From a virus (lineage: Duplodnaviria; Caudoviricetes), in IMG/VR virus record IMGVR_UViG_3300042261_000981, positions 1 through 53,901 of that record: a DNA stretch of 53,901 nucleotides. One strand, written 5' to 3'. Below the pieces are notes generated by a model. It had not been told where the DNA came from. It did no database searches and was given only the letters and a program-made list of their open reading frames with translations. The translations under genes were made by a program, and so were the position numbers. Below, one piece after another: positions 2,982-51,002 of the stretch. How positions within the stretch are numbered: the stretch's first letter is position 1; the number at the start of each line of letters is the position of its first letter.

Positions 2982-2993
2982 CCCCCTTTTCTT
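2962..2993. terminator. Bidirectional terminator-like perfect palindrome between the convergent nuclease and methyltransferase
   Basis: aagaaaagggggttat/ataacccccttttctt. Confidence 0.8.
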
Positions 2994-4098
2994 ATTTTTC
3001 TAAAACATATAATAATTCTTTAACTTTTATATTTCTATCTGTTAGATTTCTCGATGCTCTATAAGTATTATAATCTTTTTCAAGTAAAGTTAATCTACCA
3101 TTTTTCTCCATTATCTCTTTAACTATATCAGTTGGTATAATTCCTTCATTATTATAAGATAAAAGAATAAATTTCGATTTAGTATTTTCAATCAGATCAT
3201 TTAAAGATTTAATAGCGGATTCTTTTTTATTATAATTTGATTTCTGCCAATCTTTTGGTATTCCAGATACTTCGCTTATTTCTTTTGGATATTCATAATT
3301 TAGAATTGTATTTAACATATGATAATTCGAACCGTATGGATGTTGATTGTATGGTGGGTCGTAATATGTCAGATCTATTTCTTTTTTCATAGATTTAACT
3401 AATTCGTTAATGTCTTTATTTAAAACTTTAACTTGACATTCATTATCAGAAAATATGGGATATTCCAAGTTGATTTCCCCCATTATTCTCACAAGAGCAT
3501 TTTCACCATCGCCTCCAAATTTTCCTATTCCAGTTGATTTACTTTTATAAAAACCTTTGAATACTCCACCCGTATTATTATTTATAGAAGCCTTTATTAG
3601 TAATGGCGATATTAAAAATTTTTCAACACCTTCATCTAATTTATACTCTGTTATTGTCCTTCTTATATTGTCTATGATTTTAGCGTTCTCGTTTGTATAA
3701 AAACATCTTTCGCCAGATTGTGGATTTTTTGTGTCTTTCGGTGAATATAGTTCTTCTATTATACCTACATTTAAATCTGTTCTATTTTTTTTAATATTTA
3801 AATCATCTATATAATGTCTTATTAGTTTTTCATCTACTTCAGATTTATTTGACAAAAAACAAGAGTTTATAACATAAGAATATTCTTCAAAATCATTGGA
3901 TATAAGAATATTAGAATGTTGTTTTAAATATCTACTCACAACACCAGAACCAGCAAACCCGTCTAATGTTGATAATTTATCTTTATTTAATATGTTTTTA
4001 ACAAGTTGAATTCCATCATCAATGAATGACAATAAACTTCTTTTGTTTCCAATATATGTTATTATTTGGTCGGTTAAGAATTTTTGATTTTCTGGCAT
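2992..4098 (-). CDS. N6-adenine DNA methyltransferase (D12/FokI-like alpha class)
   Basis: YIGNK, DGFAGSG (motif I), DPPY (motif IV), LSYNNEG. Confidence 0.92.
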   Translation of the reverse strand: MPENQKFLTDQIITYIGNKRSLLSFIDDGIQLVKNILNKDKLSTLDGFAGSGVVSRYLKQHSNILISNDFEEYSYVINSCFLSNKSEVDEKLIRHYIDDLNIKKNRTDLNVGIIEELYSPKDTKNPQSGERCFYTNENAKIIDNIRRTITEYKLDEGVEKFLISPLLIKASINNNTGGVFKGFYKSKSTGIGKFGGDGENALVRIMGEINLEYPIFSDNECQVKVLNKDINELVKSMKKEIDLTYYDPPYNQHPYGSNYHMLNTILNYEYPKEISEVSGIPKDWQKSNYNKKESAIKSLNDLIENTKSKFILLSYNNEGIIPTDIVKEIMEKNGRLTLLEKDYNTYRASRNLTDRNIKVKELLYVLEK

Positions 4099-4445: not shown

Positions 4446-4595
4446 ATGGAAAAACAAACTGAAATATTATTTATCATTAACAATGAACTGTATAACTTTT
4501 TAGATGAAAACTTTGAAGATATACCAAGATATATAGAATATCTAATATATAAAGATATTAAAGAAAATAATATATTGATAAATGATACTATCTAA
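4446..4595 (+). CDS. Small RHH-like hypothetical protein
   Basis: ATG at 4446; overlaps the start of the HNH gene. Confidence 0.45.
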   Translation: MEKQTEILFIINNELYNFLDENFEDIPRYIEYLIYKDIKENNILINDTI

Positions 4596-5403
4596 AACTA
4601 TATCAATAAAACCATCTAACAAGAATAAGAATTATTATACCAATAAAGGTTATGATACTTCTACTAACACCATAAATGTTAAAGTAGAAGATTTACCACC
4701 ATATTCTCATTTCAAGATAAAAGTTAAATGTGATGTTTGCTGTAAAGAAAAGGAACTGCTTTATTTCAAATATATGAAGAATACTAAAAATAATACTATT
4801 CATTATGCCTGTTCCCAAAAATGTTCAGTAAGTAAATTGATGGACACCTTTAATAAGAATTATGGTTGTGTATCAAGTCAGCATCCAGATATTAAATTAA
4901 AACAATCAAAAACCAATAATGAACTCTATGGCGGAAATTCTCCTCAATGTGATAAATCAGTTAAACAAAAGTCATATGATACTATGATTGAAAAATATGG
5001 ATTTCAATATTCTCTACAAAATGAAGTTATTAAAGATAAGTTTCTCGCTAATATAGATAGAACGGTTGAAAAAACAATAAAGACAAAAGTAGAAAGAGGA
5101 CTAATGGTAGATTATAATAATTGGGACACTTATATAGAATATAGGAAATTAGTTCTCTGTGAAACAAGAAAACATAAGAATAAATTATTCAACGAATGGA
5201 ATGGTTTAGATTATTATGATGATGAATATATTAAAGATAATTCAAACGTTAAAGATAAATCATATCCTTCAATAGACCATAAATTATCTATACTATATGG
5301 ATTTAATAATCAAATAGATCCATATAAAATTGGTGGAATAAATAATCTGTGTATAACAAAGAGGACTAACAATAGTAAGAAGAATTCTAAAAACTCAATC
5401 TGA
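4582..5403 (+). CDS. Putative HNH homing endonuclease with Cys-rich N-terminus
   Basis: CDVC...CSQKC zinc motif, three YG-x4-Q repeats, C-terminal SIDHK...NL...N..K. Confidence 0.75.
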   Translation: MILSKTISIKPSNKNKNYYTNKGYDTSTNTINVKVEDLPPYSHFKIKVKCDVCCKEKELLYFKYMKNTKNNTIHYACSQKCSVSKLMDTFNKNYGCVSSQHPDIKLKQSKTNNELYGGNSPQCDKSVKQKSYDTMIEKYGFQYSLQNEVIKDKFLANIDRTVEKTIKTKVERGLMVDYNNWDTYIEYRKLVLCETRKHKNKLFNEWNGLDYYDDEYIKDNSNVKDKSYPSIDHKLSILYGFNNQIDPYKIGGINNLCITKRTNNSKKNSKNSI

Positions 5404-5596: not shown

Positions 5597-7375
5597 TTAT
5601 TCTTTCTTTTTCAGAACTTTATCAGTTTTTAATATATCATTTGCTTTCAACATCACAACTTCATTTCCTCTCAATATAGGCAGTTTGTGATTTTCGCCAA
5701 AAGAATATATTTCACCATTTATAGTGATATTCACAACATTAGTTTTAACAGATTTAATTATGTTCTTAACTTTTTTCCATCTATTATTATGAGTAAAGAC
5801 ATAATCTTCATAAGTAATATCTTTAATTGGAACATATCCCCTTTTAGTTAGAACTAATGTATTTTCATCTATACAATCAGCGTCTGCCATTAAAACCACT
5901 TTCCCATATCTCAATTTTTTCAAATCAGTATATTTTTTACCGAATTCAAGTCCCAATATGTTTATTATGTTTTTAATTTCTTCATTATCTTTTAATTTTC
6001 CCATATTAACATCTCTGACGTTTAATGGCTTACCTTTTAATGGGAAAACTCCATAGTAATCTGGATCTGGAACAGAAGATAGTCCAGCGATTACTGAAGA
6101 ACTAGCACTATCACCCTCAGCCAAGAAAATCATACACTTCTCTGACTCCGCCGTTCCAGCTTTTGCAGCGTCGTCTAATTTTCCTATTTTTACTTTAGAT
6201 TTGGCTATATCTTTTTTAGCATCGAAATCTTCTTTAATCATAAGAAATCTAAGAAGTTCTTCTATCATTTCTGATGTTGCTATCTTTTTAATAGTAGTAT
6301 CTGAAACTTCTGGAGCAGTTACTTTACTTATTAAATTTTCTTTAGATTGTGTATCGAATACAGGATTAACTACTTTAGAATTAACAAATATAAATAAATG
6401 ATTTTTAATGTCATTTTGTTTTACATTTAATTTCTTATTCCTTTTCAGTAAATTTTCTTGTATTCTTTTTGTTATTTGGTTGGTAACAGAGTTTACGTGT
6501 GTTCCACCATTATATGTAGATATACCATTAACCATTGATATTTGGTTAAATGAATTGTCTAATGATCTAGATACTCCAATTTCCCATTTATCATCTAGTT
6601 TTTCATAGAACATTTCTTGTTCACCAACGAACATTTCCATGTAAGATTTGAAATTCTTTGTTGGGATGAGAACATCATTATAATATACTTTGACTTTATT
6701 ACAATATACAGATACATCAATACATCTTTTTATCATGATTGATTCGATCTCTTCATCGATACCACTTAGCTCAAAACGTGCAAAATCAGGATAAAAAGTA
6801 ATTTTAGTATATTGTTTCTTACTCGCCTTTATTTTAGGTTTATTTATCTTATTTAAATTGTCTTCAAATACTTGTTCATATTTCTTCTTACCATCACACG
6901 TCTCAAGTATGAACTTCTTGGAAAAGATATTGGTTAGTTTGGCTCCTAGACCATTCTTTCCGCCCCATGTTCTTTCGATATTATCGTCAAAATTTTCTCC
7001 TGCTAGGAGATGTCCGAATATTAATTCTGGAATATAACATTTTTCTTTTGTGTGCATTTCAACAGGAATACCACTTCCGTCATTTTCAACTGATATTGAA
7101 TCTTTTGTTACATTAACTTTTATGTATTTGACATCACCACTACGAATATAGTGATCTGATGCGTTGGTGAGAATTTCATCGAATAATTTAAGGAAGCCAG
7201 GATTGAAGTTAGTGGGTTTATTAACTATTTTAATATTATTAAGATCTTTTGGATCTTCTACTACGAATAGATTTCTTGTTTCCGTAATGACTGATCCAAC
7301 GTATGTATCTGGTCTTAGAAGGACGTGTTCTTTGTGTGTAAGTTTTTGATATTTTTCTGAATTGCTTTTAACCAT
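5597..7375 (-). CDS. Type IIA DNA topoisomerase N-terminal precursor: GHKL ATPase + start of TOPRIM + split-intein N fragment
   Basis: EHVLLRPDTYVGS, EILTNASD, NDGSGIP, GGKNGLGAK, EGDSA, PLKGK, MADAD|CIDENTLV. Confidence 0.95.
   Translation of the reverse strand: MVKSNSEKYQKLTHKEHVLLRPDTYVGSVITETRNLFVVEDPKDLNNIKIVNKPTNFNPGFLKLFDEILTNASDHYIRSGDVKYIKVNVTKDSISVENDGSGIPVEMHTKEKCYIPELIFGHLLAGENFDDNIERTWGGKNGLGAKLTNIFSKKFILETCDGKKKYEQVFEDNLNKINKPKIKASKKQYTKITFYPDFARFELSGIDEEIESIMIKRCIDVSVYCNKVKVYYNDVLIPTKNFKSYMEMFVGEQEMFYEKLDDKWEIGVSRSLDNSFNQISMVNGISTYNGGTHVNSVTNQITKRIQENLLKRNKKLNVKQNDIKNHLFIFVNSKVVNPVFDTQSKENLISKVTAPEVSDTTIKKIATSEMIEELLRFLMIKEDFDAKKDIAKSKVKIGKLDDAAKAGTAESEKCMIFLAEGDSASSSVIAGLSSVPDPDYYGVFPLKGKPLNVRDVNMGKLKDNEEIKNIINILGLEFGKKYTDLKKLRYGKVVLMADADCIDENTLVLTKRGYVPIKDITYEDYVFTHNNRWKKVKNIIKSVKTNVVNITINGEIYSFGENHKLPILRGNEVVMLKANDILKTDKVLKKKE
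5600..5875 (-). other. Split intein N-terminal half (92 aa)
   Basis: Block A CIDENTLVLTKRG, block B-like GENHKL, stop after DKVLKKKE. Confidence 0.92.
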
Positions 7376-7456: not shown

Positions 7457-7729
7457 ATGATGAGAAATATAAAAAACTATAATATATTTAATGAAAGTTC
7501 TGGAAACATGTTTCTTCAACTTCTATTGGATAGTGTATATCTATTCAAAGTGAAAGATTTTAGCACTACATTAATTGGAAGATATGATAACATAAAAGAT
7601 TGTTATTATATACAAAGAGGAGATGGATTAAAGTATGAATATACTTCAGATAGAATTGTTTGGAGTAAAAAATTAAAATGCGAGATAGTTATTAATGAAA
7701 ATGATCCTTACGGAGAAGAAATATGGTGA
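7457..7729 (+). CDS. Hypothetical protein, C-terminal DPYGEEIW
   Basis: ORF, TAATATATA at 7440, capsid-targeting-like N-terminus. Confidence 0.75.
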   Translation: MMRNIKNYNIFNESSGNMFLQLLLDSVYLFKVKDFSTTLIGRYDNIKDCYYIQRGDGLKYEYTSDRIVWSKKLKCEIVINENDPYGEEIW

Positions 7730-8732: not shown

Positions 8733-8938
8733 TTATTCGACTTTTTCAAAATTGGAAGCATCAATGTGTAATTCGTGACCATTTATAAAAACTCTTAAAT
8801 GATTTTTAGCAACTCCTCTAACAACACCCTCTTAAGTCTTACTTTATCTCCAGTTTTTATTTTGGCTGAACTCATTGCGTTTTTCATCAATTCATCCATA
8901 TTTAATTCGAACTCCTCAAAAGTTTTTAAATTGTTCAT
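8733..8938 (-). pseudogene. Frameshifted small KOW/SH3-like gene
   Basis: MNNLKTFEEF...GDKVRLK continues in another frame as EGVVRGVAKNHLRVFINGHELHIDASNFEKVE. Confidence 0.55.
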
Positions 8939-9025
8939 GGATTTTTCTTTTCTTTTACTCTATATATTTTTTTATTTTTTTCAATTAGTGATATTTAATA
9001 TATACTAGAAAAGACAAAAAATTAA

Positions 9026-18876: not shown

Positions 18877-19566
18877 ATGCCAAACTGGGTAACAAACGTT
18901 CTAACCATAGATTGTTCAAATGAAATCTTAGAACAAATAAGAGATTTTATCAAAAACGATAAAAGAGTTATAGATTTCGATAAAATCATACCAATGCCAG
19001 AAAGTCTTAGAGTATCTGATAATAGCCTTGGGTCACTTGCTTTACACGCCATTTATTACAAACCATCTAAAGCATCTACTGATGCCGACCCTTACGGTGA
19101 AGAGGATTGGGAAGATCTTGATAAATATAAGGAATCATATATATCAGATGAAGAAGTGCATAAAAGATTTAATAAATTATCAGAAAAAGATAAAGAAGAG
19201 GCTACAAATTTAGCAAAGATATATAAAGATAATTTAGATAACTACGGAAGTAAAACTTGGTACGATTGGGCTTGCAGAAATTGGGGGACTAAATGGAATG
19301 CTAGTGAATCTAGTATTGACAACAATGGAGATATTCGTTTTGAGACAGCATGGGCAACACCACACCCGGTTATAAGAAGATTGAGTGAAATTTTTCCAAC
19401 AGCCACGTTTACAGTTAAATTCGCAGATGAAGATATAGGTAATAATTGTGGTTCATATCAAATAAAAAATGGCGAAGATATTTTCTTCGAAGAAGGCGAC
19501 GAAGATTTCGCGTATGATGTAAAAGGTTGGTCCAGAGAAGATTGGAATAGCGACGATGAAAATTAA
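18877..19566 (+). CDS. YubB/Api92-like ferredoxin-fold (DUF1281-like) protein with inserted DPYGEEDW
   Basis: MPNW, DFDKIIPMP, WYDW..NWGTKWNA, FETAW, ADEDIG. Confidence 0.8.
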   Translation: MPNWVTNVLTIDCSNEILEQIRDFIKNDKRVIDFDKIIPMPESLRVSDNSLGSLALHAIYYKPSKASTDADPYGEEDWEDLDKYKESYISDEEVHKRFNKLSEKDKEEATNLAKIYKDNLDNYGSKTWYDWACRNWGTKWNASESSIDNNGDIRFETAWATPHPVIRRLSEIFPTATFTVKFADEDIGNNCGSYQIKNGEDIFFEEGDEDFAYDVKGWSREDWNSDDEN

Positions 19567-20578: not shown

Positions 20579-21133
20579 TTATTTCTCCCACCAGTTTTCT
20601 TCACCATAAGGATCTATACCTTTCATCTTTGTTTCAGTATCTTTTTTGATCCTTTCATATTCTTCTCTTTCGACTTTTATTTTAGATCTAAGTTGAGATT
20701 TTTCCTCCTCTCCAATATCATTGGCTTCATATTTATTAAAAATATTTATAATCTTATCTTGTTTAACAAAAGTTAATGTTCCTTGATCTGGTCCGCCTTC
20801 TACATTTGCAATTATAAGAGATTTCATCATGTCTGAAATTAAATATAAATCTCCATAACTATATCTATCATTATCGCCATATAAACTACCAGATTTTACA
20901 TACCCCTTAAATCTCTTTATGAAATTTTCAATATAATCATAAGGTAATATAACCTTTGGTCCAGTCTCTCCTTTTTTAGGTCTGGGATATTCTCTTCTAT
21001 TGTCCTCAGCATATCTTTTTCTTAATGCATCTAGATTTGAATAGACAAAATCATCAACATCAAATCCATTTGGTACTAAAATAACGTAGCTAGTTGAGCT
21101 ACTATTACTTACAAATCCACTTCTTATTTTCAT
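20579..21133 (-). CDS. MKIRSGFVSNSSSTS-leader protein with DPYGEENW
   Basis: ORF translation. Confidence 0.85.
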   Translation of the reverse strand: MKIRSGFVSNSSSTSYVILVPNGFDVDDFVYSNLDALRKRYAEDNRREYPRPKKGETGPKVILPYDYIENFIKRFKGYVKSGSLYGDNDRYSYGDLYLISDMMKSLIIANVEGGPDQGTLTFVKQDKIINIFNKYEANDIGEEEKSQLRSKIKVEREEYERIKKDTETKMKGIDPYGEENWWEK

Positions 21134-21663
21134 AATTCGTCAAATTTTTTAATTTTATTAGATTCTTTCATATCTAATCCATCTTCATCGTCCCACTCTT
21201 CCTCACCGTAAGGATCATGAACTTTCATTTTATCTTTTAATATTTCTCTTTTAAGTTTTCTTTCTGATGCTTTATCTTTATACTTGAAAATGTCTTCTTT
21301 ATGTTTATTTTCGATGACATTCATCTTATCCATTTCTCTTTTACTAATAAGTTTTATTATGCCCGATTCCTCTTGACAAGCTTCGTATGCAATAAAGATA
21401 ATATAATCATTAAGAAGTGTTTGTAATGGCAAAAACAATCTATTTTCGTATTCATGGCAAATACCATCCTTTATGAATTTTTTAATATCAGACTCTTTAA
21501 GGGTATTAACATTGTTATAATCATCCATATAAACTTTTTTCTTGCCTTTGTTCTTATCCAAGAATGCTTCTTTGGCTGTATCAAAATCAAAATCATCTGG
21601 TAAATATACCAAAATGAAAGATGATCCGCTACTATTACTTACAAATCCTGTTCTTATTTTCAT
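21130..21663 (-). CDS. MKIRTGFVSNSSGSS-leader protein with DPYGEEEW
   Basis: ORF translation. Confidence 0.85.
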   Translation of the reverse strand: MKIRTGFVSNSSGSSFILVYLPDDFDFDTAKEAFLDKNKGKKKVYMDDYNNVNTLKESDIKKFIKDGICHEYENRLFLPLQTLLNDYIIFIAYEACQEESGIIKLISKREMDKMNVIENKHKEDIFKYKDKASERKLKREILKDKMKVHDPYGEEEWDDEDGLDMKESNKIKKFDEL

Positions 21664-22226
21664 AATTCTTTAAATTTTTTTATTTTGTGTGATTCATCAA
21701 TTGGTCCTCTTTCTAATTCGTCTAATGTATCTGGCACCTTATCTAAATCTTCATCCCAATCTTCTTCACCGTATGGATCATGCTTGATCATTTTATTTTT
21801 AAGATATTCCCTTTTTTTCTTTTTTAATCCAGCTAAGTCCTTGAATTTTCTAGTATTATCAGAGGATAAGGAATCCATATTGGCGAATTTATCAAATAAT
21901 CTCTTATCTACTCTTTCTATCCTGTCATAACCTTCATAATCCAATGTAGTTTCATATACAACATAATCTTCAAAAAAGAAAGATATATCATAAAAATCCA
22001 TTCTACCTCTTCTTCCTTTCTGAACAAAAAGATCAATATCTTCCTTTTTTAATGCTCCAAGAAAATTTTTAATATCATGATAATTACCAAAATCTTCATG
22101 CTCTTTATTTTTATACTTATCCAACATGTATTCTACATGAGAATCATAATCAAAATCTGGCGGAATGTATAACAATACAAAAGAAGATGAACTACTATTA
22201 CTTACAAAACCTGATCTTATTTTCAT
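21660..22226 (-). CDS. MKIRSGFVSNSSSSS-leader protein with DPYGEEDW
   Basis: Start moved to 22226 by analogy with its neighbours. Confidence 0.85.
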   Translation of the reverse strand: MKIRSGFVSNSSSSSFVLLYIPPDFDYDSHVEYMLDKYKNKEHEDFGNYHDIKNFLGALKKEDIDLFVQKGRRGRMDFYDISFFFEDYVVYETTLDYEGYDRIERVDKRLFDKFANMDSLSSDNTRKFKDLAGLKKKKREYLKNKMIKHDPYGEEDWDEDLDKVPDTLDELERGPIDESHKIKKFKEL

Positions 22227-22242
22227 CAAATAATATTTTTTT

Positions 22243-22620
22243 TTAATATCGATGACTGATATATTCATCGTCGACTTCAACTACATTAGAAAGAAACCAC
22301 CCCATATCAAAATTATCCATAATAGTATATACTTCTATAGTATTTTCTTTTTCTTCAACATCCCAACTATCATATGGCTCAATACCATACATGAGATTTC
22401 TTATCTTTGTACCAAATAAATCAGTATCATTCTCATCCCAATTTTCTTCACCATAAGGATCATCATCAGAATAAACTCTCTCAGATTCACTATACATAAG
22501 TTTATTACAAACATCCAAATGATTCTTAATCATTTCTATTTGCTCTTCGTTTAGTCCTTCCTTTTTAATTATATAACTAGAAGAACTACTATTACTTATA
22601 AAATATAATCTTAATTTCAT
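22243..22620 (-). CDS. MKLRLYFISNSSSSS-leader protein with internal DPYGEENW
   Basis: ORF translation. Confidence 0.85.
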   Translation of the reverse strand: MKLRLYFISNSSSSSYIIKKEGLNEEQIEMIKNHLDVCNKLMYSESERVYSDDDPYGEENWDENDTDLFGTKIRNLMYGIEPYDSWDVEEKENTIEVYTIMDNFDMGWFLSNVVEVDDEYISHRY

Positions 22621-22626
22621 ATTTTT

Positions 22627-23199
22627 TTAATATTCTTCTTCATATGGGTATTCATATTCCCATTCTTCTTCCCCGTAAGGATCATTTTTACTTATTGTCA
22701 TTTTTGGTTTATCATCCCAAAAAAATTTTCTTCTACCTAATGGGTGTTTTCTTGGTTTTCCCATCCATTCTAAATCTCCTTTTAAATATCTAAGTTCTAG
22801 TCTATATATCATTTCATCTACACTATCAAATTTTAATTTATCAGGGGCATAATAAAATTCTAATCTAAAGTCTTCCGGACCCAATTTATCATTAACTTCC
22901 AACCAAGTCATAGTAAGATCTTTTATATCTATTTTTACTTTCTCTCTATAAATCAAACTTTTATTTCTTTCTTCTTCATCTTCAACGTATTGTTTGCTTA
23001 TAGGATCCCAATTGAATTTACTAGCAGCCCAAGATCTTTTGATATGAGTAAATGTAATACTATCATTTTCTTTGGTATCATCTATTATTATACGACTAAA
23101 TGACGCCATTTTTAATTTTTTAGATATTTCTTCTAATTTTATAAGAACGGTATAATAATCATCTTCAATATTTTCAAATATTTTAAAGTTAATAATCAT
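22627..23199 (-). CDS. Hypothetical protein, C-terminal DPYGEEEW
   Basis: ORF, TAATATATA upstream. Confidence 0.75.
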   Translation of the reverse strand: MIINFKIFENIEDDYYTVLIKLEEISKKLKMASFSRIIIDDTKENDSITFTHIKRSWAASKFNWDPISKQYVEDEEERNKSLIYREKVKIDIKDLTMTWLEVNDKLGPEDFRLEFYYAPDKLKFDSVDEMIYRLELRYLKGDLEWMGKPRKHPLGRRKFFWDDKPKMTISKNDPYGEEEWEYEYPYEEEY

Positions 23200-23231
23200 T
23201 ATATTATTTAATTTTCTACTATATATTATTT

Positions 23232-24290
23232 TTAGATTTTATAAATTGGACAATCTCTCCCACAATGCAATAACCTACCCTTAAACTCTTTGGTTTTTTC
23301 ATTATTCCATACATCATTCAAAAAATCGTCACAATCTATTACTGATATGCCTTTCTCCCAATTTGTAGTATTGGTAGCGAAAGAACACGGGAAATAATCT
23401 CCTTTAACGTTAATATAACTGGAATAGATAGTTGCTTCACATGGCTCGACCATGGCTTCCATCATTTTATAGTTCTTTCTTCCTTCTATTGATTTCAGGA
23501 ATTTGAAACTACCACAACTATCAAAACCAATTGGAATATTATTATCTATAGCCCTATCAACAAGCGCCTTAAATTTATCTTGACTTAATTGTAAAAATCC
23601 TGTTTTTGCACACCCTTTTGTTTTAAGTGATAAGAAAACTATTGCGTTTAATTTTTGCAATCTATTATCTGTCTTTATATCATCAAGAGTTTGCATAGCA
23701 TCATCAAATGTTTCTTCACTCAACATGAAGTGAATATTAGTTTGCTTCAATCCCCTATCAGTTAACTCTTTTACTGCATTGTATGTAGTATCTTTATCAT
23801 ATTTAGATACAGCGCAAGCCCCAACGGTCGATGCTAACCTATCAAAAAGTTCATCGTTCATCCTACTACCATTGATAGTAATATTTGGAATAACTCCTTT
23901 ACTATGACAATATTTCATGATATTCCATAGATCGGGATTTCCATCTATATTACCAATACCTAAAGCTACTTGAGTTACTGTAGGTGGGAGTTTTTCGAGA
24001 ACTGTTTGGAATGTTTCTAGACTCATGTTTTCTCCTCTTGGAGTGTTCTCTTTATAACAGAATTTACAGATACCGTGTACTCCGTTACAAACGGTTGATA
24101 TTTCAATGTCTGCTATTTCTGGGAGTCCTACGCTCAGGTCTCCATCGTCTTCTTTTGTTTCTCCCCATCTAACGAAGAAACCATTTGATTTATTGAAAAT
24201 GAAATTGTAATTCTTACTTTGCAGAACCTTTGTGTTGGCGTCCTCAACCAGTCTGGCTGTTTCACCATTGGATAATTTTATCTCTATCAT
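23232..24290 (-). CDS. Radical SAM protein with SPASM/twitch-like C-terminus
   Basis: CNGVHGICKFC (CX6CX2C), NITING, PCEA...INVKGDYFPCSF, CGRDCP. Confidence 0.88.
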   Translation of the reverse strand: MIEIKLSNGETARLVEDANTKVLQSKNYNFIFNKSNGFFVRWGETKEDDGDLSVGLPEIADIEISTVCNGVHGICKFCYKENTPRGENMSLETFQTVLEKLPPTVTQVALGIGNIDGNPDLWNIMKYCHSKGVIPNITINGSRMNDELFDRLASTVGACAVSKYDKDTTYNAVKELTDRGLKQTNIHFMLSEETFDDAMQTLDDIKTDNRLQKLNAIVFLSLKTKGCAKTGFLQLSQDKFKALVDRAIDNNIPIGFDSCGSFKFLKSIEGRKNYKMMEAMVEPCEATIYSSYINVKGDYFPCSFATNTTNWEKGISVIDCDDFLNDVWNNEKTKEFKGRLLHCGRDCPIYKI

Positions 24291-24388: not shown

Positions 24389-25135
24389 ATGATTACTGAA
24401 TTTTCTCAATACACAGATAATAATAATCTAATTGGTAAAGTAGCTGTTTTAAAAGACAGAACAGACGCTGTATATTGGGAAGGTATCAAAGGTATCAATG
24501 GATGTCAACCAATATTTGTTGATACTGGTTATCAAAAGGGACTTTCTATTCAAATAACAGACCATCACATTCACAACGTGAAAACTTTATTTAAAGGATT
24601 ATTAGCATATCCTAAGGCAAGAGATTGGCCTGATAGAGATATATTGTGGAATTTAGATAAATTTGATATAATGAAAAGAGAAGATTTTGATAAATATATG
24701 CAAGACAAAAAGAAAAGAATAGAAGAATTGAAATTATTACATATTCAACATGATCCTTATGGTGAAGAAATATGGGAAAATTATAATAAATTATATGAAT
24801 GGAGATTCTTGAAAAAGAAAAAAGAATTAGGCATTGATCCTTATGGCGAGGAGGATTGGGGTGAAGAAATAGATAAAGATCTCAAATTTTATAATGTTAA
24901 GTATATAGTTCCTAGAAATTGGTTCAATAACCCTTTAGAAATTTTAAAAACAAATCTTCATTTCACTCCAAAAGAAATAATAGAAAATTATGAAATATCT
25001 TCATATGATTATGTTAAAGATAATTTTATAGGGAATGTAAAAGTGCAATCATATTTATCCAGATTGGAGTTACAAGAATATTTTAATAAGCACTCTACTA
25101 TAATTGAAAAATTCATAGTTCGTGTTTTTTTTTAA
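24389..25135 (+). CDS. Hypothetical protein with two DPYGEExW motifs
   Basis: Start moved to MITEFSQY after TAATATATA at 24375. Confidence 0.75.
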   Translation: MITEFSQYTDNNNLIGKVAVLKDRTDAVYWEGIKGINGCQPIFVDTGYQKGLSIQITDHHIHNVKTLFKGLLAYPKARDWPDRDILWNLDKFDIMKREDFDKYMQDKKKRIEELKLLHIQHDPYGEEIWENYNKLYEWRFLKKKKELGIDPYGEEDWGEEIDKDLKFYNVKYIVPRNWFNNPLEILKTNLHFTPKEIIENYEISSYDYVKDNFIGNVKVQSYLSRLELQEYFNKHSTIIEKFIVRVFF

Positions 25136-33501: not shown

Positions 33502-34503
33502 GTGATTAGATATATCAAAACATACGAACAATATTTTGGTAGTAAACCTAAAACAGGTCAAATAATTTATATGACTGACGATTTAGTTAATAATATGGCT
33601 AGAGCTCACGGTAATAAATATGCCGCTGCTGTGCTCAATTTACTAAAAGCAGACAGAGATAAATTAATAGACAATCATGCTAATTATTTAAGCGTAGAAA
33701 CAGACGGAACAATTTCTTACTTGGATGGAAGATATTTAAAAGAAGAAACTGAATATAATCCAGCAAATTATGACGATGCAAGAAGAAGACAAAAAGTTAA
33801 AGCTACAAAGATATTACAAAAGATATTAAAACCAGAATATATTCCACAGGAACAAACAGTAATAGAACAATTTTCAACCTATTGGAAAACTTTATATGAT
33901 GAATCTACAAGAGTAGAGGAACTCGTAGGTGAAGATATATTAAGAGCTTATAATTATAATAATGAAGTAAATGGATCTTTGGGATCATGTGCTGGATTTA
34001 GTGAATATACAGTTAAAGAAACTCATAAAAAGAGATTTGAAGTTCTAATAAAAAATCCTGAAAATTTTACAGCTTTTGTAGTATGGAAAGATGGTAAAAT
34101 AGTAGGTAGAAGAATTGGTGTTAAAGGTATTCAAACTAAAACACACGGGTTCTTCCAAGAAGGCGAACTTTATAAATACTTAAATAATTTCTATGGTCCT
34201 GGATATGGTTCGCAGGCTAATAAAATGATTGAGGCTTTAGCTTTAAAACAAGGTTATGTCGCCGAATATGGTTCATACTGTAAATGTTTTTTGAAAGATA
34301 AAAAGAAATTAAGAGAAGAAGATGTATTTAGAATAAAAGTTCAAAATGGTCTTGATCAAAAAGCAATGTTTCCTGCTTTTGATTCAATGGTCGTTAACTT
34401 TCAAACGAATGAAGTAGCTTCAAGAGTTCCTGGGCCAAGTAAAAATCCTGAACCAGGATGGACTAAATTCTATGGAGCTGTCCCACCTTCATATGGGCGT
34501 TAA
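33502..34503 (+). CDS. Hypothetical protein, related to the C-terminal domain of 25180..27624
   Basis: Shared D..ISYL, RQ..K..K, V.GED...Y, L.SC motifs. Confidence 0.8.
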   Translation: MIRYIKTYEQYFGSKPKTGQIIYMTDDLVNNMARAHGNKYAAAVLNLLKADRDKLIDNHANYLSVETDGTISYLDGRYLKEETEYNPANYDDARRRQKVKATKILQKILKPEYIPQEQTVIEQFSTYWKTLYDESTRVEELVGEDILRAYNYNNEVNGSLGSCAGFSEYTVKETHKKRFEVLIKNPENFTAFVVWKDGKIVGRRIGVKGIQTKTHGFFQEGELYKYLNNFYGPGYGSQANKMIEALALKQGYVAEYGSYCKCFLKDKKKLREEDVFRIKVQNGLDQKAMFPAFDSMVVNFQTNEVASRVPGPSKNPEPGWTKFYGAVPPSYGR

Positions 34504-35705
34504 ACACCATTTAATTTATCTCTTATTTTTTTCTTAAGTTGAGACATATTATGAATTCTATTATTATATGAATTTTTTTCGTATTGTATGAATTGTAAAT
34601 CGAATTCCTGTCTGAAGGTTGCTTCACCTCCAATTAAACAAATTTGTTCTTCTCTCCAACTCTCAATTCTAGAAATTTCTTTCAATGGAGTATATTCTAT
34701 AATCATTTCTCTTATATTTCCAATATATGTTTTATCATTATCAACATCATATTTTATAAAATAAGTTATTTTATTGTCTATTTTTTTCTCATAAATATCC
34801 AATCCTAAATTTCTTAAATAACTTAATACTCCGGAAATTGAACAATTATGATATTTTAATTTATCTTCATTGAATATTATTTTAGTATCCATTCTACCAG
34901 GAACTTGCCACCAGTAAACTCTTTTGGAAGCAAAAGCATTTTTATCTGGGTGATCATATGGCAATTCAGAATTACTTAATAATTCGTAAAATAAATTATA
35001 ACCATTTGGAGTGGATGTAAGAATGATTTTAGAATTTTCAATAGATGATATTGTTGGTATTATAGAATAATAAAAAGGACGAATTATACTATCTGGGATT
35101 TTAGCAAATTCATCAATATATAATAAATCTATAGTATTACTAACGGCAGGTTCTTTTGTTCTGGATTGACTCTGCACTCTGCATCCATTTTCGAATTGTA
35201 AATATCTTTCATTCCAATTAATAACTCCAACTTTCAAAAAGAAAGGCAATAATTTATAAATATCTTTTATTTTTCTAATAATTTCTTTGGTTGTTTCTGA
35301 TTTGTTAGCAACGATCATAACACCTTTATCTTTATTAAATAATATCATGTGTAAAATTGTTATAACAGCTAAAACTGTTTTCCCAATTTGTCTGGAAGCC
35401 ATTAAAATAGAATATCTATTCTCTGTATATAATTTTAATATATCTTTTTGGTAATCTCTCAACTCTATTTTTCCAATACTACCATCCTCTAATTTAATTT
35501 TACAATAATGTTCAGCAAAATAATATATCGAGAGTTTACATTTTATATACTCATCTATTTCATTTTGACTCATTGCAAATTTAATGCCAGCCTTTCTAAC
35601 TCCATTTATATTTTGAAAATAAATCTTATTATATCTGGATACTTGCTCAGCTAAATTATATTTATCTATTAATTCATTAATAGATTCCGTTGTATATATT
35701 TTCAT
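34500..35705 (-). CDS. T4 gp17-like terminase large subunit ATPase domain without nuclease domain
   Basis: LRDYQ, SRQIGKT, ANK, LYIDEFA, TSTPNG, FRQEF then ends; start set at ATG 35705. Confidence 0.85.
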   Translation of the reverse strand: MKIYTTESINELIDKYNLAEQVSRYNKIYFQNINGVRKAGIKFAMSQNEIDEYIKCKLSIYYFAEHYCKIKLEDGSIGKIELRDYQKDILKLYTENRYSILMASRQIGKTVLAVITILHMILFNKDKGVMIVANKSETTKEIIRKIKDIYKLLPFFLKVGVINWNERYLQFENGCRVQSQSRTKEPAVSNTIDLLYIDEFAKIPDSIIRPFYYSIIPTISSIENSKIILTSTPNGYNLFYELLSNSELPYDHPDKNAFASKRVYWWQVPGRMDTKIIFNEDKLKYHNCSISGVLSYLRNLGLDIYEKKIDNKITYFIKYDVDNDKTYIGNIREMIIEYTPLKEISRIESWREEQICLIGGEATFRQEFDLQFIQYEKNSYNNRIHNMSQLKKKIRDKLNGV

Positions 35706-39911: not shown

Positions 39912-40865
39912 ATGATTCGAACTTTTGAAGAATATAATTTTTTCAACGAAGAAGAAGAAAAAATTGATCTCTATAATATAATATATCATAAAATTCTAAA
40001 TGGAGAATTGTTAATATACTACACTGGAAAACCTTATTATGGTAGATATACTTATAGAGCCATTAAAAATGAGGGAATTGATGGAGAAGACCACAATGAT
40101 GTAGATCCATACGGTGAAGAGATATGGAACGAACTACCAGAAGGTTTTCAAATATGGAGAGAAACTGGTTTATCTGAAGGTTCTATTATAACAGTACATT
40201 TTGGCGGAAAACAAGTTATTATAGCTAGAAAATCATCATTTTTGCCATATAATAAAAAATATAGTGATCTTAAGAAATTATTAAATACGAGATATAGAGG
40301 AAATTTGCCTTCTACTCTTGGAGCTTCTCCTTATGATTACAAAGGGGACCAAATAGAATTAGCTAAAGAACTCGGATTGGACGAATCAGTAAATGAACAA
40401 CTTATAGCGATATTAGGAGCAGTTCCTTTAATGTTATTTTTAACTATATTTGCAAGTAGAGGATTAATAACAAGAAAAGTCTATAAACACTTAATTAAAA
40501 AGGCAAATAATGTAGATATTCAAGTAAGATTATTAAATTTAAATAACGCTGCGGCTTTAGTGCATCAATATGACGTTGTCCCATTTTTTATGTCAAATAA
40601 AACTATTGACGATGGGAGGTTTTATTATATTCGTATAATTTCTGAAGAAAGAAGAATGGACGATGTAGATCCTTATGGCGAAGAGGAATGGGGAGAAGAA
40701 GCTACAGAAATATTAATATCGCAAAATACCAGAAAAATGTTAGTAAAAAATATTCCTATGGATGATTATCCAAAATTGCCTATAGCATCTAAAAGAATTG
40801 TTAAATTAACAAAAGGAGAATATAGACAAATTGTAGAAAAAATAACACCTTTAATTCGACAATAA
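39912..40865 (+). CDS. Two-module protein with two DPYGEExW motifs and a central TM helix
   Basis: ORF translation. Confidence 0.78.
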   Translation: MIRTFEEYNFFNEEEEKIDLYNIIYHKILNGELLIYYTGKPYYGRYTYRAIKNEGIDGEDHNDVDPYGEEIWNELPEGFQIWRETGLSEGSIITVHFGGKQVIIARKSSFLPYNKKYSDLKKLLNTRYRGNLPSTLGASPYDYKGDQIELAKELGLDESVNEQLIAILGAVPLMLFLTIFASRGLITRKVYKHLIKKANNVDIQVRLLNLNNAAALVHQYDVVPFFMSNKTIDDGRFYYIRIISEERRMDDVDPYGEEEWGEEATEILISQNTRKMLVKNIPMDDYPKLPIASKRIVKLTKGEYRQIVEKITPLIRQ

Positions 40866-50415: not shown

Positions 50416-51002
50416 TTTCTATAATTTTCTTTTAAGAAATCCATGAATGAAGTTTTCATAGCGGCGCTCTTTTCTCTTCTTATTCTTTCTTCTTCCGCTA
50501 ATCTTTCTTGCCTTATTCTTTCTTCTTCTTTAGCTAGTCTTTCTTTTTCTATTTTTTCACCATTTTGAAAGAATTCCCATAATTTATCGAAAGCTTTATC
50601 ACTAACTATTTGCTGAACATTATTTATTGTTATAATTCTCTTGTTTTTATCCTCATCTTTCCTCTCTTTTTGAATCATTATTATTAGTTCTTTTAAGTTT
50701 TTAGGACTTTCATCTTCCCAATTTTCTTCACCATATGGATCTATTGGATTTGTTTTATTTCTATTTATAATGTATGTATAAAATAATATATCCTTATCGT
50801 CCGCGCTTTTTAATGATGAATAATGATATTTAAGATCGAATTTTAAGAGTTTTAAATTAATTCCTTTTTTTAATTTCTCTAATATACGATAAATTAAATC
50901 ATCGTCCTGCTCGAGAAACTCTTGTTGTTTTATTTCTTTTGGTTTCTCTCCAGGTCTTTTACCAAATATATTAAACTCGTTCAAATGTTGTAAATTACGC
51001 AT
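50412..51002 (-). CDS. Paralog-family protein with DPYGEENW
   Basis: ERLA.EEERIR tandem repeat in the tail. Confidence 0.8.
   Translation of the reverse strand: MRNLQHLNEFNIFGKRPGEKPKEIKQQEFLEQDDDLIYRILEKLKKGINLKLLKFDLKYHYSSLKSADDKDILFYTYIINRNKTNPIDPYGEENWEDESPKNLKELIIMIQKERKDEDKNKRIITINNVQQIVSDKAFDKLWEFFQNGEKIEKERLAKEEERIRQERLAEEERIRREKSAAMKTSFMDFLKENYRK

Follow-up and report, generated by a model that had tools for sequence, protein, structure and literature searches.

A radical SAM enzyme linked to a serine-rich N-terminal tag: a candidate protein-modification system of large phages and bacteria

Gene content of the locus

The window analysed here is the entire 53,901-base viral record IMGVR_UViG_3300042261_000981 (Caudoviricetes; GC content approximately 28%), which carries on its minus strand a six-gene operon, running from 24290 to 20579, that encodes a radical S-adenosylmethionine (SAM) enzyme and four proteins sharing a short serine-rich N-terminal tag (Table 1). 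The gene for the enzyme, a protein of 352 amino acids (aa), is followed by an untagged gene encoding 190 aa and then by the four tagged genes, with gaps of 32, 6, 16, -4 and -4 nt in that order. A preliminary description of this DNA, made from the sequence alone, had reported a CX6CX2C radical SAM gene upstream of four tandem genes with a common Ser-rich N-terminus, and all of these elements are present; its placement of the enzyme upstream of the four needs correcting in that the untagged gene intervenes. The 190-aa protein has no match in Pfam, PHROG or NCBIfam, and neighbour clustering showed that its family is not kept beside the enzyme in other loci. The second tagged gene starts at the ATG at 22226 and not at the TTG at 22280.

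The window is a fragment of a large phage, with a split topoisomerase II, terminase pieces, a family B polymerase, dihydrofolate reductase and PhoH, and the tagged genes lie among non-structural genes such as that for PhoH. The DNA datasets that contain the window sequence are freshwater and lake metagenomes, which may include the source sample; no RNA dataset containing it is listed.

The N-terminal tag and the proteins that carry it

In the window the tag comprises 16 residues, MK(I/L)RxxF(V/I)SNSSSSS(F/Y), and the N-termini of the four products are MKLRLYFISNSSSSSY, MKIRSGFVSNSSSSSF, MKIRTGFVSNSSGSSF and MKIRSGFVSNSSSTSY. A back-translated pattern for the tag matched four times in the window and never in 100 shuffles. 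An open reading frame (ORF) at 8799-9008(+), picked up by an SNSS regular expression, was rejected as a spurious hydrophobic ORF. Across 242 unique tagged proteins collected from viral loci (53-305 aa, median 130) the consensus is MKIRxGFVSNSSSSSF, with Ser or Thr at position 9 and M1, K2, R4, G6, F7, V8, S9, N10, S11, S12, S15 and F16 near-fixed; G6 and F7 are invariant in 150 tags, and the GFVSNSS core lies precisely five residues past the start Met in 257 of 270 cases. A 40-column profile built from the 150 tags matched 26,038 of 1.84 billion cluster representatives (50% identity) at E up to 0.001; a limit of 1e-10 left 661. Nearly all of the top 150 matches begin at residue 1.

Beyond the tag the proteins diverge: the bodies (residue 19 to the end) of 241 proteins fall into 83 BLASTP components, and of 148 tagged proteins sampled, 146 are without a Pfam domain and two have leucine-rich repeats (LRRs). 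Within the window the divergence of bodies proposed earlier applies to one protein of the four. Tagged proteins 2-4 are paralogues with body identities of 41% (proteins 2 and 3), 29% and 29%, and it is the 125-aa protein that belongs to a different family, sharing just the tag and a DPYGEE stretch with the other three. This protein is a member of the most widespread short subfamily, in which Q27, I31, W86 and an MDNFDM motif are conserved (alignment of 21 sequences). Its AlphaFold2 (AF2) model has a predicted local distance difference test score (pLDDT) of 76.9 and consists of a small alpha/beta domain that begins at S14 (first strand, residues 14-19), preceded by a low-confidence tail at residues 1-11 (pLDDT <50). 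A Foldseek search of this model against the PDB gave no match at E up to 0.001, and a search of the ESM Atlas with a tagged protein returned only viral hypothetical clusters (scores 0.78-0.86). Positions 1-37 of phrog_7397, annotated 'unknown function', match three of the four tagged proteins (E 4e-5, 4e-5 and 3.2e-4), the 125-aa protein being the one without a match; beyond this family nothing was found for the tagged proteins of the window in Pfam, PHROGs, NCBIfam or PADLOC. A homologue search with the 188-aa protein returned only six proteins.

Two further kinds of tagged protein were noted. Long bacterial examples of 549-811 aa (L268:5268-7418(-), L289:4202-6634(-), L312, L313 and L358-L360) have a hydrophobic, membrane-helix-like segment right after the tag, no Pfam domain and an adjoining enzyme gene. 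A recurrent subfamily has a Cys-rich, zinc-ribbon-like stretch directly past the tag (tag-CxxCG...C..GH.FC), and is found in loci L252, L258, L285, L314, L366 and L369 as well as in the viral loci L008 and L063.

Family and predicted fold of the radical SAM enzyme

The cluster-binding site of the enzyme, C68-x6-C75-x2-C78, has CX6CX2C spacing as opposed to the canonical CX3CX2C; among 41 homologues C68 and C78 do not vary, and C75 is kept in at least 90%. Membership of the radical SAM superfamily follows from the match to Pfam Radical_SAM (PF04055; E 2.2e-9, 38.2 bits against a cut-off of 29.5), whereas the score against SPASM (PF13186) of 20.3 bits lies just below the cut-off of 21.5. The enzyme also matches phrog_7293 over residues 13-350 (E 8.8e-92), a family annotated 'unknown function'. 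SPASM/twitch-like cysteines had been proposed for it, and the twitch-like half of that proposal stands: the only conserved C-terminal Cys residues are 259, 284, 302 and 347 (41-44 homologues), which points to one auxiliary cluster of the twitch-like kind and not to a full seven-Cys SPASM domain. A divergent and mainly bacterial sister clade retains the full SPASM set, with a CX2CX5CX3C...C block and scores of 34-41 bits against the SPASM profile, and qualifies as SPASM (PF13186 / TIGR04085).

The AF2 model of the enzyme (pLDDT 94.4) shows an N-terminal five-strand beta domain (residues 1-42), a barrel and a C-terminal twitch-like domain. Foldseek placed SuiB first among solved structures (E 2.4e-10, TMq 0.63-0.69), then SkfB, CteB, TigE and the anaerobic sulfatase-maturating enzyme (anSME; 4k39, E 1.1e-8), with viperin, BlsE, PqqE, BtrN and EpeE after these. 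Judged from the predicted structure, the closest solved folds are thus peptide and protein maturases. At the level of sequence the enzyme has no match among PDB sequences at E up to 0.1, and all NCBIfam maturase models score far under their cut-offs. Maturases of ribosomally synthesised peptides with post-translational modifications (RiPPs) that depend on a RiPP recognition element (RRE) have a PqqD-like element; no PqqD/RRE Pfam match was found in the enzyme, its residues 1-42 are all-beta in the model, and neighbour clustering revealed no third gene family conserved beside the viral enzymes. The anSME family model (TIGR03942, at least 349 bits, together with a C/S-x-P/A-x-R substrate) gave no match at E up to 0.1.

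Two other assignments were rejected. Against a prokaryotic viperin (pVip) speak 22.8 bits, set beside a cut-off of 180, for NCBIfam viperin_w_prok, a PADLOC pVip match of only E 1e-6 and 26.5 bits, and the position of viperins below the peptide maturases in the fold search. Glycyl-radical activases are small proteins with an N-terminal CX3CX2C motif and no twitch or SPASM domain that act on RVxG[FWY] in a C-terminal Gly loop; here CX6CX2C starts at residue 68, a twitch-like domain is present, and the tag is N-terminal with Arg at -2.

Linkage of enzyme and tag in viruses

With the enzyme as query, all six viral contigs recovered (40-78% identity, GC 23-46%) were found to bear three to six tagged genes near the enzyme; in two of these loci (L003 and L004) the first tagged gene begins approximately 40 nt past the enzyme match. 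Conversely, a scan of viral sequences with the tag pattern gave at least 120 loci on 112 distinct contigs among the matches listed, to which the counts for viral loci given here refer. Of the 111 contigs open to searching, 83 bear an enzyme homologue, co-occurrence being the check named in the preliminary description; for comparison, members of the enzyme family occur in 173 of 50,697 phage records. The enzyme lies within the short locus in 50 of the loci, where the nearest tagged gene is at a median distance of 267 bp, on the same strand in 46 of 46 cases and downstream in 34 of 46. Whole-record searches of the remaining viral loci found the enzyme elsewhere in 29 of 47 and 10 of 20 records; among records at least 90% complete the counts were 7 of 7 and 5 of 6 (12 of 13 in total).

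A tagged protein of phage KP15 is present in 175 phage records, with counts per host genus nearly equal to those of the 173 with the enzyme, and its gene lies in a region annotated with putative middle promoters. Vibrio phage D479 has five tagged genes located about 1.4 to 10 kb from the enzyme. The search used for the KP15 and D479 tags gave no match in 14 control genomes. Cultured coliphages also have homologues, with nine records labelled Escherichia for the enzyme and nine for the tagged protein; RB16 and phT4A are among the records with a tagged-protein homologue.

Cellular genomes and co-variation of tag and enzyme

The same tag pattern gave at least 120 loci from bacterial and archaeal assemblies, many of them metagenome-assembled genomes, some perhaps mis-binned phage. 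The tag also occurs in isolates, namely Veillonella parvula, Acetatifactor muris, Clostridium caldaquaticum, Fusibacter tunisiensis, Lachnobacterium bovis and Flagellimonas marina. Among the cellular matches listed the enzyme is inside the locus (up to 8 kb) in 75 of 120, and where both genes were called (n=54) they are on the same strand in 54 of 54 and within 300 bp in 49 of 54. On the chromosomes of V. parvula and A. muris a single tagged gene abuts the enzyme.

The residue at tag position 9 varies with the enzyme. Among the enzyme-bearing loci listed, every Thr-9 tag (10 viral loci, 47 cellular) is paired with the divergent enzyme clade (<35% identity), and Ser-9 tags are paired with the main clade in 77 of 79 loci from viruses and 20 of 26 from cellular genomes. 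This pattern is consistent with co-evolution of enzyme and tag but does not prove it, many of the loci being related.

In 28-29 of 71 cellular loci the enzyme-tag pair follows a conserved protein of approximately 135 aa and one of approximately 740-980 aa. The longer protein matches trypsin-like and NACHT profiles below threshold and PADLOC Avs2 at E 9.1e-16, and four cellular loci add a gene for a metallo-beta-lactamase-fold protein resembling Avs1a or LmuA. The order observed in the bacterial operon is the optional metallo-beta-lactamase-fold gene, the ~740-980-aa protein, the ~135-aa protein, a Thr-9 tagged protein of ~130 aa and a radical SAM-SPASM enzyme, as in L253:1990-7997(-) (A. muris) and L278:2423-7998(+) (V. 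parvula). The enzyme-tag pair itself is not present in PADLOC. From its gene content the trypsin-NACHT operon looks like an undescribed Avs-like defence system with a putatively radical SAM-modified component, and the position of the pair beside Avs-like genes suggests a role in phage-host conflict.

Modelled complex of enzyme and tag

A prediction of the complex, the second check named beforehand, was made from alignments of the enzyme and of the 125-aa protein with two 4Fe-4S clusters and SAM. It scored 0.69 (0.81, 0.69 and 0.59 in three runs) as compared with 0.00-0.04 for three controls, a score that expresses the model's own confidence and is not a measurement; in calibration, 58 of 80 solved complexes attained the 0.69 mark, as did 2 of 110 mismatched pairs. 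Agreement among runs on contacts was 48% or more, and the pLDDT of the partner 37 or more. On the partner's side the contacts come exclusively from residues 1-16, which is the tag. According to the model, enzyme strand 36-43 pairs with tag residues 1-7, the Lys at tag residue 2 contacts the near-invariant Glu at enzyme residue 282, tag residue 6 contacts barrel residue 183, and tag residues 8-16 lie in the catalytic cavity beside invariant enzyme residues. The rest of the enzyme interface, in the barrel and twitch domain, is mostly invariant or near-invariant (107, 109, 111, 136, 138, 157, 185, 187, 216, 220, 255-259, 282, 284-285, 290 and 302-304).

A proposed maturase-client system and its alternatives

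We consider it probable that enzyme and tag form a two-component maturase-client system in which the tag is both docking element and substrate of the radical SAM enzyme. Linkage, strict N-terminal position and a clade-specific tag variant are observed, the mode of binding is modelled, and catalysis on the tag is suggested by the chemistry of the enzyme family. The Ser-rich motif had previously been proposed as the recognition or modification site; co-occurrence, co-variation of tag and clade, the controlled complex model and the maturase fold neighbours argue for this, and DPYGEE, listed beside it as a shared feature, drops out (see below).

In this scheme the enzyme would recognise the extreme N-terminus of any protein starting M-K-x-R-x-G-F-V-(S/T)-N-S-S-S-S-S-F. 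Residues 1-7 are predicted to dock as a beta strand on enzyme strand 36-43, so that the N-terminal beta domain would play the part of the RRE domain in RiPP maturases, and the Ser-rich residues 8-16 would run into the barrel, with the SAM cluster on one side and the lone auxiliary cluster on the other. By analogy with the family, a 5'-deoxyadenosyl radical would then abstract a hydrogen within G6-F16, leaving the tag covalently altered. Position 9 (Ser/Thr), the sole position that switches together with the enzyme clade, or a neighbouring Ser or Asn is our leading guess at the target, albeit a weak one. The outcome might be a two-electron oxidation of the anSME/BtrN type or an intramolecular cross-link of the SuiB type; formylglycine formation is only one of several possible chemistries. 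One enzyme would thereby serve many unrelated small proteins, four of them in the window. Early or middle roles of these proteins in host takeover or conflict are plausible in view of their non-structural neighbours (PhoH) and of the putative middle promoters in KP15.

Several points weigh against the maturase-client reading. Co-occurrence and the Thr/Ser co-variation are partly inherited by lineage, and there are fewer independent events than the counts imply. The two tagged genes of KP15 are approximately 20 kb away from its enzyme gene. The pairing is broken most clearly by G063 (the record behind locus L114), a 132.5 kb genome rated 100% complete, with direct terminal repeats, which has two genuine tagged genes and no detectable enzyme; a second tag-bearing viral record, G041 (88% complete), is also without it, these two being the non-fragmentary exceptions among the viral contigs. 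The enzyme was not seen in 28 of the 111 viral contigs and 45 of the 120 cellular loci listed, mostly fragments or windows of up to 8 kb. A second auxiliary cluster, kept by the bacterial sister clade, has been lost from the phage clade, and the chemistry may differ between the clades. As regards the complex, the job used custom alignments and ligands, unlike the calibration of the tool; its score may partly reflect likeness to solved SPASM-peptide complexes (SuiB-SuiA is among the fold matches); and the fold of the partner within it is uncertain (pLDDT <50).

Three alternatives were weighed. The tag could be a chemically unchanged docking peptide, and the variable proteins exchangeable targeting or regulatory subunits that steer the enzyme to other substrates, be they host proteins, nucleic acids or metabolites, or plug and regulate it. 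Such an adaptor role would also fit the genomic linkage and the complex model, and the diverse bodies in 83 components, with two LRR-bearing members, would suit specificity modules; we nevertheless regard it as improbable, since residues 8-16 are modelled inside the catalytic cavity beyond the docking strand, the invariance of S9-S15 exceeds the needs of such a strand, and all of the fold neighbours act on the peptide that they bind.

Less likely still is an indirect linkage, in which the tag serves targeting, virion packaging, secretion or degradation and the enzyme merely co-travels in an accessory block of large phages. Against the large restriction of both genes to large phages, the separation in KP15 and the lack of an enzyme in G063, which this explanation would accommodate, stand the recurrence of same-strand adjacency across viral contigs of 23% to 46% GC, the adjacency in isolate chromosomes such as those of V. 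parvula and A. muris, the tracking of enzyme clade by tag variant, and the control scores of only 0.00-0.04. The contacts in the catalytic cavity and the adjacency in isolate chromosomes make both of these alternatives less consistent with the data than a maturase acting on its clients.

Very unlikely, finally, is an activase that takes the C-alpha hydrogen of Gly6 (I-R-x-G-F) to leave a stable or fragmenting backbone radical and unmodified serines: the invariant G6 and F7, a local likeness to the glycyl-radical signature RVxG[FWY], and the modelled contact of residue 6 with barrel residue 183 are offset by the Arg at -2 of the Gly and not -3, by the location of the Gly of glycyl-radical enzymes in the C-terminal domain of a large barrel, by the absence of twitch/SPASM domains from glycyl-radical activases and by the lack of any activase among the fold neighbours listed.

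A broader form of the maturase-client reading joins four statements: that MKxRxGFV(S/T)NSSSSSF is a universal client tag on tens of thousands of unrelated, unannotated proteins; that one dedicated radical SAM family modifies the tagged proteins of phages, bacteria and contigs binned as archaea; that large phages mature arrays of up to nine small proteins with one enzyme; and that some cellular loci, including some from Firmicutes isolates, have the pair built into trypsin-NACHT (Avs-like) operons. We put these forward tentatively, rating the chance that all four hold together at slightly below even.

The DPYGEE motif and other features of the window

All four tagged proteins carry DPYGEE, which had been described as a shared tag. 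It is a separate motif of the phage lineage and not part of the enzyme-tag system: DP(Y/F)GEE, in most cases with x-W and acidic residues after it, is found at 26 sites in the window as compared with 0 expected in shuffles, and no site was found in enzyme-tag loci outside the lineage (L006-L008, KP15 and D479). The sites in the window lie in 22 of the 82 ORFs of the ATG-start set, on either strand and without exception in the coding frame. The motif is often close to C-termini or within inserts; that of the 125-aa protein is within an insert missing from its homologues in other phages (alignment of 21 sequences). Five related viral records of 116-243 kb have 17-38 sites each, with none for a reversed-pattern control, and the motif was found in at least 115 stretches of a small contig set. 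Synonymous codons vary and flanks are unconserved, which argues for selection on the peptide and rules out a DNA-level repeat or mobile element. DPYGEE looks like a lineage-wide short linear motif of freshwater jumbo phages, perhaps a docking peptide for a shared hub. The papers in the searched literature that contain the string do not deal with phages, as judged by titles and the openings of abstracts. One further carrier in the window is an Api92-like protein (DUF1281_C, E 4.1e-16; phrog_12644), with the motif at residue 71.

Elsewhere in the window the two topoisomerase II subunit genes are separated by two genes, one DNA methyltransferase-like and one like a homing endonuclease, and the terminase large subunit is represented by a partial 400-aa piece adjoining other genes. 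The separated topoisomerase II and the partial terminase suggest split or invaded essential genes.

Table 1. Positions of the operon genes and of other features in the 53,901-base window
Feature	Position	Strand	Length	Basis or remarks
Radical SAM enzyme	23232-24290	-	352 aa	Pfam and PHROG matches, conserved columns, AF2 model, fold neighbours
Untagged gene between enzyme and tagged genes	22627-23199	-	190 aa	ORF list; DPYGEE at 22666-22683
Tagged protein 1, N-terminus MKLRLYFISNSSSSSY	22243-22620	-	125 aa	Tag codons 1-16 at 22573-22620; DPYGEE at 22444-22461
Tagged protein 2	21660-22226	-	188 aa	Tag at 22179-22226; DPYGEE at 21762-21779
Tagged protein 3	21130-21663	-	177 aa	Tag at 21616-21663; DPYGEE at 21199-21216
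Tagged protein 4	20579-21133	-	184 aa	Tag at 21086-21133; DPYGEE at 20597-20614
DPYGEE example site	7703-7720	+		Pattern search
DPYGEE example site	24752-24769	+		Pattern search
DPYGEE example site	24836-24853	+		Pattern search
DPYGEE example site	40104-40121	+		Pattern search
DPYGEE example site	50724-50741	-		Pattern search
Api92-like protein	18877-19566	+		DUF1281_C and phrog_12644 matches
Topoisomerase II subunit gene	98-1996	-
Gene between topoisomerase II subunits	2992-4098	-
Gene between topoisomerase II subunits	4582-5403	+
Topoisomerase II subunit gene	5597-7375	-
Terminase large subunit, partial	34500-35705		400 aa

Novelty and significance

The searched literature contains no text with the tag strings FVSNSSS or SNSSSSSF, and for FVTNSSS only papers that are unrelated as judged by titles and the openings of abstracts; searches for radical SAM enzymes in phage, RiPP or NACHT contexts returned no description of the enzyme-tag pairing. 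The pair thus looks like a widespread, unstudied candidate protein-modification system of phages and bacteria. Radical SAM maturases are known chiefly from short peptides and a handful of dedicated protein substrates; in this case one short N-terminal tag is predicted to turn any protein into a client. If the modification is real, a large block of phage 'dark matter' genes would become functionally approachable for the first time, protein N-termini would gain a new post-translational chemistry, and such chemistry would be tied to Avs-like defence operons of bacteria; if the broader form also holds, radical modification of N-termini would be in common use in phage-host conflict, as a currency not seen until now. 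Homologues of the enzyme and of a tagged protein occur in cultured coliphages, which makes the system tractable by experiment.

Comparison with known systems

The closest solved folds of the phage enzyme are SPASM/twitch RiPP maturases (SuiB-streptide, SkfB and CteB-SCIFF). As in those systems, the enzyme gene lies beside several substrate genes with a conserved recognition segment and a variable remainder, and the modelled peptide strand docks on the N-terminal domain before entering the barrel. The differences are that the clients are proteins of 53-811 aa with mutually unrelated bodies and not short peptides; that the conserved segment is the extreme N-terminus and, in the model, itself enters the cavity; that no PqqD-like RRE was detected, the N-terminal domain being all-beta; that the tag lacks Cys, Lys-Trp or any other known cross-link motif; and that the phage clade has one auxiliary cluster and scores far below the cut-offs of the NCBIfam maturase models. 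The anSME, a fold neighbour, likewise belongs to the radical SAM enzymes bearing auxiliary clusters and targets a Ser or Cys close to the N-terminal part of a complete protein, but its substrate motif C/S-x-P/A-x-R is missing from the tag consensus, it has two auxiliary clusters, the window enzyme has no TIGR03942 match and the clients are not sulfatases. The prochlorosin synthetase ProcM provides a parallel for a single enzyme with many substrates, in that one maturase serves many tandem or scattered precursors with a constant recognition segment and a hypervariable remainder; unlike the enzyme described here it is a lanthionine synthetase, and follows leader-core peptide logic and not that of a tag on whole proteins.

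The nearest described idea is the pairing of a C-terminal FxSxx peptide with a radical SAM-SPASM enzyme in the VMAP ternary conflict systems, NTPase-based systems in which that enzyme is predicted to modify an FxSxx peptide effector (Kaur et al., eLife 2020, PMC7159879). The likeness lies in the bacterial sister clade of our enzyme, found in operons with a trypsin-like and NACHT/STAND protein. The conserved motif in the VMAP systems is a C-terminal peptide freed by a peptidase, whereas ours is an N-terminal tag on whole proteins; there are further differences in the motif itself, in the partner genes and in the arrays borne by phages. Radical SAM maturases whose substrates are genetically linked to them are of a known kind; what is unusual is the universal N-terminal tag on unrelated whole proteins and its arrays in phages.

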